DNA of 64,000 nucleotides, taken from Escherichia coli 042 (GTDB taxonomy: Bacteria > Pseudomonadota > Gammaproteobacteria > Enterobacterales > Enterobacteriaceae). A program made the translations under genes and the position numbers. Shown piece after piece: positions 18,918-49,170 of this stretch. Under the pieces are notes generated by a model. The model was not told the DNA's origin, did no database searches, and saw only the letters and a list, made by a program, of their open reading frames with translations. The stretch's first letter is position 1; each line of letters begins with the position of its first letter. The DNA lies in NCBI RefSeq assembly GCF_000027125.1, contig NC_017626.1. One strand, written 5' to 3'.

Positions 18918-18999
18918 CCGTTATCTCCTGATACACCTTAGATCTATAAGGCTACGCTAGCGTATCAAAACTGACAATTCATTCTATGAATGAATCTGT

Positions 19000-19254
19000 T
19001 CAATAATGATAACGACATGCTGCAATGAGCAGTGAATCGTCGGTAACCGCGTATACCAGACGGTGCTCCTCTGTAATGCGTCGGGACCAGAAGCCTGACA
19101 AATTATGCTTCAGGGGTTCTGGCTTCCCCTTACCTTCAAATGGTGTTCTGCGGGTATCTTTGATAAGTTCAATGATCTTTTTAACAATTCGCTTATCTGT
19201 TTCCTGCCAGTACAGATAATCATCCCATGACTCCTCAGACCAGATTAGTTTCAC
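19000..19254 (-). CDS. yoeB: Type II toxin YoeB (ribosome-dependent mRNA interferase), 84 aa
   Basis: Length; overlaps the yefM stop by 4 nt; position next to hisL. Confidence 0.9.
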
Positions 19255-19502
19255 TCAATAATGTCCTTTTCCGTTCCTTTGCCTGATTTCAGGCTATCGA
19301 TTGAGTCCATCAATCTCCGGGCGTTAGCGGGGGAGCGCAGTAGATAAGCCGTCTCTTCCAGCGAGTTGTATTCTTCGAGTGACATCAGAACACAAGCCTC
19401 TCCATTCTGACGAGTAATAAGGATCGGGGCATGATCTTCAACGGCTTTCATCATTGTTGCCGACAAATTCTGGCGCGCTTCGCTGTAGCTAATTGTACGC
19501 AT
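19251..19502 (-). CDS. yefM: Type II antitoxin YefM, 83 aa
   Basis: Start set at [13 protein letters not shown] with AAGAGGAG RBS; overlaps yoeB. Confidence 0.9.
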
Positions 19503-19517
19503 TTCAATCTCCTCTTT

Positions 19518-19535
19518 TGTACAGTTCATTGTACA
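19518..19535. promoter_or_regulatory. yefM-yoeB operator: TGTACA-N6-TGTACA
   Basis: Two TGTACA hexamers at 19518-19523 and 19530-19535 just upstream of the yefM RBS; this core hexamer is the reported YefM-YoeB binding site. Confidence 0.6.
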
Positions 19536-19717
19536 ATGATAGGCGTTAATTAACTATTTATTAATTAGTCTGTAGATCAAGACATTGTCAGTGAGACGAA
19601 AAATCCAGGTTTCGCTATTTTGGGTGCCGTCAGGTTAGGGGACACTCCTCTTAGCCCCCTCCTTTCCCCGCTCATTCATTAAACAAATCCATCGCCATAA
19701 AATATATAAAAAAGCCC

Positions 19718-19747
19718 TTGCTTTCTAACGTGAAAGTGGTTTAGGTT
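19718..19747 (+). promoter_or_regulatory. Candidate his operon promoter (-35 TTGCTT, 17-bp spacer, -10 TTAGGT/TAGGTT) with AT-rich upstream tract
   Basis: Hexamers about 40 bp upstream of the hisL ATG. Confidence 0.45.
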
Positions 19748-19785
19748 AAAAGACATCAGTTGAATAAACATTCACAGAGACTTTT

Positions 19786-19836
19786 ATGACACGCGTTCAA
19801 TTTAAACACCACCATCATCACCATCATCCTGACTAG
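19786..19836 (+). CDS. hisL: his operon leader peptide, 16 aa with seven consecutive His codons
   Basis: ATG ACA CGC GTT CAA TTT AAA CAC CAC CAT CAT CAC CAT CAT CCT GAC TAG. Confidence 0.95.
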   Translation: MTRVQFKHHHHHHHPD

Positions 19837-19900
19837 TCTTTCAGGCGATGTGTGCTGGAAGACATTCAGATCTTCCAGTGGTGCATGAACGCATGAGAAA

Positions 19901-19933
19901 GCCCCCGGAAGATCACCTTCCGGGGGCTTTTTT
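19901..19933 (+). terminator. his attenuator terminator
   Basis: gcccccggaag (19901-19911) / cttccgggggc (19917-19927) stem followed by TTTTTT at 19928-19933. Confidence 0.85.
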
Positions 19934-19981
19934 ATTGCGCGGTTGATAACGGTTCAGACAGGTTTAAAGAGGAATAAGAAA

Positions 19982-39229: not shown

Positions 39230-39268
39230 CACGCTACCGCCCCTGGCTTAACAGCTACCAGTGCACTA
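39230..39268 (-). promoter_or_regulatory. JUMPstart element with ops (GGCGGTAGCGTG on the transcribed strand) in the O-antigen operon leader
   Basis: Plus strand cacgctaccgcccctggcttaacagctaccagtgcacta; ops reverse complement at 39230-39241; near-identical copy upstream of wza. Confidence 0.7.
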
Positions 39269-44555: not shown

Positions 44556-44742
44556 GCCTGATGCGACGCTGGCGCGTCTTATCAGGCCTACAAGACCCGA
44601 GCACAGAACCGTAGGCCGGATAAGGCGTTCACGCCGCATCCGGCATTCAGTGCCTGATGCGACGCTGACGCGTCTTATCAGGCCTACAGGTCCCGAGCAC
44701 AGAACCGTAGGACGGATAAGGCGTTTTACGCCGCATCCGGCA
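44556..44742. repeat. Tandem pair of BIME units (each a REP pair) between wcaK and wzxC
   Basis: gcctgatgcgacgctg[g/a]cgcgtcttatcaggcctaca...gtagg[c/a]cggataaggcgtt...cgccgcatccggca present twice, about 96 bp apart. Confidence 0.7.
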
Positions 44743-49069: not shown

Positions 49070-49170
49070 ATCGTTACCCTTTTTCAGGCAATAGTTGGCC
49101 CTGACCGAAACGGCCAATTTTGTTTTTGTCGTTATTTACCGGAGAATTAATCCGGTTGATTATTCAACTG

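Follow-up and report, generated by a model that had tools for sequence, protein, structure and literature searches.

The stretch of the Escherichia coli 042 chromosome analysed here (64,000 nt, referred to below as the window) carries the toxin-antitoxin genes yefM and yoeB on its minus strand, in the order yeeZ-yoeB-yefM and then hisL; hisL and the His leader are divergent from 19787 onward, and the Rfam family His_leader matches 19812-19935. The two genes were assigned as follows.

19251..19502, minus strand: yefM, antitoxin and autorepressor, 83 aa (PF02604 PhdYeFM_antitox, E 6e-28, 96.8 bits, cutoff 29.8)
19000..19254, minus strand: yoeB, toxin and corepressor, 84 aa (PF06769 YoeB_toxin, E 3e-42, 142.9 bits, cutoff 27)

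The antitoxin gene comes first, the toxin gene overlaps its stop by 4 nt, and both products are small and score above their HMM cutoffs, as is characteristic of a type II toxin-antitoxin module (Phd/YefM with YoeB, of the RelE superfamily). YefM is 100% identical to the protein of K-12 MG1655 and matches PDB 2a6q, and YoeB agrees with its K-12 counterpart at 83 of 84 residues (99%), the single change being N28I at codon 28 (19171-19173), where KKIIELIKD is found here and KKINELIKD in K-12. The 851 bases around the site treated below are 100% identical to those of E. coli strain 2013C-4991, for which RefSeq annotates yoeB, yefM and hisL.

Several other elements of the window were recorded, the following at the Rfam gathering threshold.

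16998-17072, minus strand: STnc240 sRNA
44614-44684, plus strand: naRNA4
49074-49123, minus strand: algC RNA motif
39230-39268 and 63546-63584, minus strand: two JUMPstart elements, lying ahead of the O-antigen and colanic acid clusters

Annotation transferred from the identical strain places a lambdoid prophage at the left end of the window (about 1-12366), beside sbcB, with genes for an integrase (about 11188-12366), N, CII, CIII, Kil, a Rad52-like recombinase and an anti-RecBCD protein, and an O80-type O-antigen cluster (wzx/wzy of the O80 family) downstream of the his operon, over about 27000-50000 and flanked by gnd and galF.

Paired TGTACA boxes in the yefM-yoeB promoter

Direct reading of the plus strand upstream of yefM gives TGTACA at 19518-19523, GTTCAT at 19524-19529 and TGTACA at 19530-19535; the motif TGTACA-N6-TGTACA that the first-pass annotation had placed at 19518-19535 is present exactly as it described, in the reading and in a pattern search alike. 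Read in the direction of transcription, the minus strand has TGTACA (19535..19530), ATGAAC, TGTACA (19523..19518), A (19517), AAGAGGAG (19516..19509), ATTGAA (19508..19503) and the ATG of yefM (19502..19500). The elements of this region are listed below, with positions relative to the transcription start in brackets.

19551..19556, minus strand: -35 hexamer TAGTTA of pyy, the yefM-yoeB promoter, separated from TACAAT by 17 bp and the same in K-12 (PMC7730913)
19526..19539, no strand: long palindrome L, TCATTGTACAATGA, the primary YefM site (-17 to -4), with core TGTACA at 19530-19535; a 14-mer named in PMC1802561
19528..19533, minus strand: -10 hexamer TACAAT (-11 to -6), inside L (PMC7730913)
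19524..19529, minus strand: 6-bp spacer ATGAAC, which holds an unused in-frame ATG (19529..19527; -7 to -5) and, at -3 (19525), the 5' end seen in vitro
19518..19523, no strand: short palindrome S, TGTACA, the secondary, cooperative site of YefM and YefM-YoeB (-1 to +5; PMC1802561, PMC7730913)
19522, minus strand: transcription start, G (+1), transferred from K-12 primer extension and lying inside S
19509..19516, minus strand: Shine-Dalgarno sequence AAGAGGAG (+7 to +14), set off from S by one base and from the ATG by 6 nt

The promoter-distal and promoter-proximal boxes are not equivalent. Positions 19526-19539 form a perfect 14-bp palindrome equal to the L sequence quoted in PMC1802561, and S is bare, its flanking bases C (19524) and A (19517) not being complementary, so that the extended distal box and the bare proximal box have the form of an L/S paired-palindrome operator. 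S ends 16 nt before the yefM ATG, well within the 80 bp upstream of the start codon of the bicistron where an operator of this kind is looked for.

Boss et al. (2020; PMC7730913) described pyy with the -10 box TAcAAT, the -35 box TaGttA, a 17-bp spacer and G at +1, L covering the entire -10 box and S surrounding the transcription start site. Primer extension in K-12 gave an in vivo start relative to which the yefM ATG begins at +21 and a second ATG, not used, occupies -7 to -5 (Kedzierska, Lian & Hayes 2007; PMC1802561); strain 042 has these two ATGs at 19502 and 19529, so that +1 corresponds to 19522, and the minus-strand base at this position is G, in agreement with PMC7730913. The 5' end obtained earlier in vitro at -3 (PMC1802561) corresponds to 19525. 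Placed solely by this transfer of coordinates from K-12, L of strain 042 encloses the -10 box and S the transcription start. The leader is 20 nt long (GUACAAAAGAGGAGAUUGAA-AUG), begins at the second base of S and includes the ribosome binding site at +7 to +14. The first-pass annotation had also stated that the second hexamer sits immediately upstream of the minus-strand Shine-Dalgarno sequence and leaves very little 5' leader; the single base A (19517) separates S from AAGAGGAG, and the short leader, with its mapped start inside S, agrees with what is already documented. A consensus promoter scan picked TTAATA-17-TATCAT (19564..19536) instead, and we rejected this candidate, the mapped start at 19522 and the published TAGTTA-17-TACAAT being located 8 bp downstream of it; the scan missed TAGTTA because it needs at least 4 of 6 matches per hexamer and TAGTTA matches TTGACA at 3 of 6.

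The paired motif occurs once in the 64-kb window, even when one mismatch is tolerated. With the same tolerance shuffled sequences gave a mean of 0.08 paired matches, and 8 of 100 shuffles had any match, and for the exact motif the expectation is about 0.002, as calculated from the observed density of TGTACA (12 copies in 64 kb). Those 12 single copies show no enrichment over the 11.9 expected. Since the single hexamers occur at the chance rate and the pair is rare, the non-randomness lies in pairing and position.

The operator mapped in K-12 consists of a long palindrome, 5'-TCATTGTACAATGA-3', and a short TGTACA repeat, the centres of which are 12 bp apart (PMC1802561). The two boxes here are these published L and S sites (PMC1802561, PMC7730913), as was implied when the first-pass annotation called the hexamers the recognition pair of YefM/YoeB autoregulation. 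It had proposed comparison with the mapped K-12 operator and start as the check on this assignment and a mapped operator elsewhere as the finding that would speak against it; the K-12 operator maps exactly here. DNase I protection in K-12 extends from -17 to +12 (19539..19511 here) and is divided into a primary YefM footprint on the upper strand from -17 to -3 (19539..19525), which is L, and an extended footprint from -2 to +12 (19524..19511), which covers S and enters the ribosome binding site (PMC1802561). YefM occupies L first and S at higher concentration, and the YefM-YoeB complex protects both at an approximately 100-fold lower concentration; in promoter-lacZ fusions, YefM alone represses about 5.5-fold and YefM with YoeB reduces expression to background, and mutation of S impairs repression (PMC1802561). 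According to a review (PMC3920265), changing the spacing between L and S abolishes cooperative binding to S.

This K-12 evidence for binding and repression by YefM and YefM-YoeB, consisting of EMSA, DNase I footprinting and lacZ fusions (PMC1802561), was obtained on DNA identical to that of strain 042 across both boxes. In an alignment from the -35 box to the ATG, the two strains differ at three bases, all outside the boxes: CT here and TC in K-12 at 19542/19541, directly 5' of L, and A here and C in K-12 at 19503, the base before the ATG. We infer that these three flanking differences would leave the behaviour of the operator in strain 042 unchanged.

Conservation, decay and variation of the locus

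The 61-nt promoter-operator from the -35 box to the ATG is present in 4,217 of 5,426 complete E. coli genomes. The allele of strain 042 is a minority one, matched exactly in 64 of these 4,217 genomes, and it departs from the common alleles at 19541-19542, abutting L, and at 19503. The 37-mer at 19540..19504, starting one base 5' of L and including the ribosome binding site, was found mismatch-free in 3,476 genomes, a number that includes matches over the first 35 bases as well as over all 37, as sampled, and is therefore not a count of full-length exact copies alone. When we aligned seven E. coli alleles picked across the identity range, both TGTACA boxes were invariant in all seven, and the L 14-mer in six, strain LHM10-1 altering only its last G. 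The variable positions were in the -35 box (TAGTTA to TAGTGA), the four bases 5' of L, the spacer, which is ATAAGC instead of ATGAAC in LHM10-1 with loss of the upstream ATG, and the interval between ribosome binding site and ATG. The two boxes are fixed within E. coli while their surroundings drift, even in one lineage with decayed toxin-antitoxin genes.

The yefM-yoeB locus itself is a presence/absence polymorphism: about 4,211-4,217 of the 5,426 complete genomes have it between yeeZ and hisL, and in about 1,200 of the 5,426 it is decayed or deleted and the genes are not intact. In O157:H7 strain 493/89 (L002), about 650 bp comprising genes and operator (window 18996-19647) is replaced by about 210-245 bp (a range because two comparisons gave different lengths) with REP-like GCCGCATCCGGCAG, and this filler aligns with a longer remnant in strain HH97 (L021). 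The HH97 remnant is a decayed yefM-yoeB, 75% identical to window 19797..19186 and bearing deletions and in-frame stops. Because the filler matches this decayed copy, the alleles without the module look, as judged from alignment, like products of decay or deletion rather than an empty site. HH97 nevertheless has an intact -35 TAGTTA, L and S (TCATTGTACAATGAACTGTACAAAAGTGG; L021 1461-1560, corresponding to window 19560-19510), an orphan operator beside a pseudogene. Such an orphan operator is probably rare: among the matches listed, HH97 is the lowest-ranked record of the 61-nt search and the sole one without yefM annotated under the match.

The junctions of this indel have features of their own. 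A perfect AT-rich hairpin at 18977-18995, ATTCATTC-TAT-GAATGAAT, lies 5 nt past the yoeB stop, is followed on the minus strand by TGTCAGTTTTGA, and coincides exactly with the left junction; possibly it acts as a weak terminator or marks a recombination boundary. Beside the right junction, in the yefM-hisL intergenic region, substitutions relative to K-12 cluster at 19610-19650 in a G-rich stretch, GGGGACACTCCTCTTAGCCCCCTCC, which is overlapped by a 32-aa ORF on the minus strand (19577-19675) that is probably spurious.

Beyond E. coli, we examined the upstream regions of 14 plasmid-borne YefM homologues found by tblastn, with 32-84% protein identity. The TGTACA pair was found with at most one mismatch in 5 of the 14 and with at most two in 8, as against 0.06% and 0.7% of shuffled upstream regions, and the core pattern GTAC-N8-GTAC in 8 of 14 homologues (9 of 15 loci when the window is counted), as against 0.15% of shuffles. 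In the majority of these loci, 13-19 nt lie between the end of the proximal box and the ATG, so that abutment on the ribosome binding site is a trait of the family. A survey of homologue operators has already been published (Figure 8 of PMC1802561), and our plasmid sample reproduces it.

Within the plasmid sample, two Pantoea agglomerans plasmids (L004 and L005, upstream of position 401) have yefM homologues 71-75% identical, and yoeB is absent from their entries in the PLSDB gene table, which is incomplete; only about 170 bp lies between the end of yefM and the next annotated gene, uvrA, too short for a full yoeB. Their boxes are degenerate (TGTAAA-N6-TGTAAT, without GTAC), and the related plasmid L003, which has both genes, retains TGTACA in L; possibly the operator decays after loss of the toxin. 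In the plasmids of Spartinivicinus ruber (L007) and Piscirickettsia salmonis (L016), four GTAC boxes in two 12-bp-spaced pairs are found upstream of yefM, the pairs of L007 being offset by 6 bp with three xGTACA boxes at a 12-bp period, and this suggests larger operator arrays in some family members.

Interpretation and competing explanations

On the basis of these observations, the TGTACA pair almost certainly marks the promoter-operator of yefM-yoeB, a type II toxin-antitoxin operon of the E. coli chromosome. One YefM dimer would bind L (TCATTGTACAATGA, 19526-19539), which contains the -10 hexamer TACAAT, and a second dimer would bind S (19518-19523), 12 bp away from centre to centre and spanning the start at 19522. 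YoeB would bridge or stabilise the two YefM dimers, with cooperative occupancy of both boxes at an approximately 100-fold lower protein concentration. The occupied operator would then exclude RNA polymerase sterically, since the -10 box lies within L and +1 within S (PMC7730913), giving negative autoregulation; on degradation of YefM the promoter would fire and yield a transcript with the 20-nt leader, in which the ribosome binding site starts two bases past S. The operator is already published, and our assignment is a correct identification of a known feature, not a discovery. Its significance is mostly one of annotation, a well-characterised autoregulatory site having been placed correctly, and what we add is an independent check of its conservation.

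A third box with a GTAC core follows this operator. CGTACA at 19499..19494 (+24 to +29), within ATG CGT ACA, that is, yefM codons 1-3, matches TGTACA at 5 of 6 positions with GTAC intact, and its centre is located exactly 24 bp (2 x 12) from that of S, in 12-bp phase; it is identical in every intact E. coli allele aligned. This box in codons 1-3 is shared by none of the 14 plasmid homologues, and in E. coli it lies outside the published footprint, which ends at +12 (PMC1802561). On these two grounds we rejected it as part of the operator, and the presence of CGTACA in codons 1-3 is probably due to chance. It is very improbable that this box is a weak, in-phase, E. coli-specific auxiliary YefM site extending the array over the start codon or, as a separate matter, that the orphan operator of HH97 is still used, for example by a paralogous antitoxin.

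In a competing reading, yefM begins at the upstream in-frame ATG (19529) and encodes 92 aa, which would make S and the apparent Shine-Dalgarno sequence part of the coding region rather than of the leader. A mechanical ORF call does start yefM there, and a start at the upstream ATG was suggested earlier, as recounted in PMC1802561. Both mapped 5' ends, however, are downstream of that ATG, and yefM overexpressed with the upstream ATG included gave a product that starts at +21 (PMC1802561). The region upstream of 19529 lacks a ribosome binding site, in LHM10-1 the upstream ATG is replaced by ATA and yet RefSeq gives the same 83-aa YefM record (WP_001259255.1), and the RefSeq start in the identical strain 2013C-4991 corresponds to 19502. 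The longer reading frame is thus extremely unlikely to be the one translated, and the assignment of the site confirms ATG 19502, rather than the upstream ATG chosen by ORF finders, as the true start of yefM.

Two self-complementary hexamers could also pair as a 6-bp stem with a 6-nt loop, and the repeats might then work through RNA or DNA structure, with a leader hairpin regulating translation or termination, and not as a protein operator. The mapped 5' ends (19522, and 19525 in vitro) are located downstream of L (PMC1802561), however, and a transcript that lacks L and has only part of S cannot form this hairpin. Folding of the 5' 60 nt of the mRNA gives -5.8 kcal/mol, no more stable than shuffled sequences (z = +1.3), and the homologues retain the GTAC cores and their spacing but differ in the spacer sequence, which is the pattern expected of a protein site. 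We therefore give hardly any credence to control by such a hairpin.

That the two hexamers are a functionless chance co-occurrence could be argued from the occurrence of single TGTACA hexamers in the window at the chance rate (12 against 11.9), but two copies exactly 6 bp apart would be expected about 0.08 times or fewer in the window even if one mismatch is tolerated, and this pair stays unchanged in E. coli alleles whose flanks vary, recurs before distant homologues far above shuffles, and has been footprinted experimentally in K-12 (PMC1802561); conservation and the published footprint effectively refute this explanation, whose probability is negligible. An operator primarily for another regulator of LexA or CRP type, overlapping the yefM promoter, was considered since toxin-antitoxin promoters sometimes bear extra sites, and has next to no probability, no support for it having been found: inspection of 19500-19560 by eye showed neither LexA CTGT-N8-ACAG nor CRP TGTGA-N6-TCACA, and the literature on the site consulted here names only YefM and YefM-YoeB as acting there (PMC1802561, PMC7730913, PMC3920265).

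Comparison with known systems

The closest system is K-12 yefM-yoeB (PMC1802561): the window has the same L 14-mer, S, 6-bp spacer, -10 and -35 boxes and ribosome binding site, at the same distance from the ATG. The differences amount to the three single-base changes outside the boxes and N28I in YoeB, and no functional difference would be expected.

The axe-txe promoter (pat) of Enterococcus faecium plasmid pRUM shares paired TGTACA cores, the 12-bp distance between centres and the -10 box TACAAT (PMC7730913, PMC3760812). In pat, L is located in the spacer between the -35 and -10 boxes and S lies only partly over the -10 box, so that RNA polymerase and the repressor can bind together and repression is weaker; in yefM-yoeB, by contrast, the -10 box lies under L and +1 under S, with steric exclusion of RNA polymerase (PMC7730913).

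The yefM-yoeB operator of Staphylococcus aureus shares the GTAC-N8-GTAC core with the window (PMC7544224). In its complex, a YoeB-YefM2-YefM2-YoeB heterohexamer is bound to GTAC-N8-GTAC DNA with two YefM dimers in adjacent major grooves, and in the crystal structure Arg10 and Gln11 read the GTAC core and Tyr6 and Ser7 contact flanking thymines (PMC7544224). YefM of the window, which has PDB 7bwf among its structure matches, carries the same DNA-reading residues Y6, S7, R10 and Q11, and the roles of these residues may carry over to the E. coli protein. The two operators differ in that both boxes of S. aureus have extended flanks (TTGTACA and its mirror) and are located at the -35 and -10 regions (PMC7544224), whereas in E. 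coli L alone is extended and S is bare; structural evidence of conditional cooperativity exists for S. aureus (PMC7544224), not for E. coli.

The more distant phd-doc system of phage P1 has an antitoxin of the same Phd/YefM fold, GTAC-containing palindromes and a toxin that acts as corepressor (PMC7544224). Its GTAC boxes are separated by 9 bp, as against 8 in yefM-yoeB (PMC7544224), and its toxin is Doc, not a YoeB/RelE-like protein.
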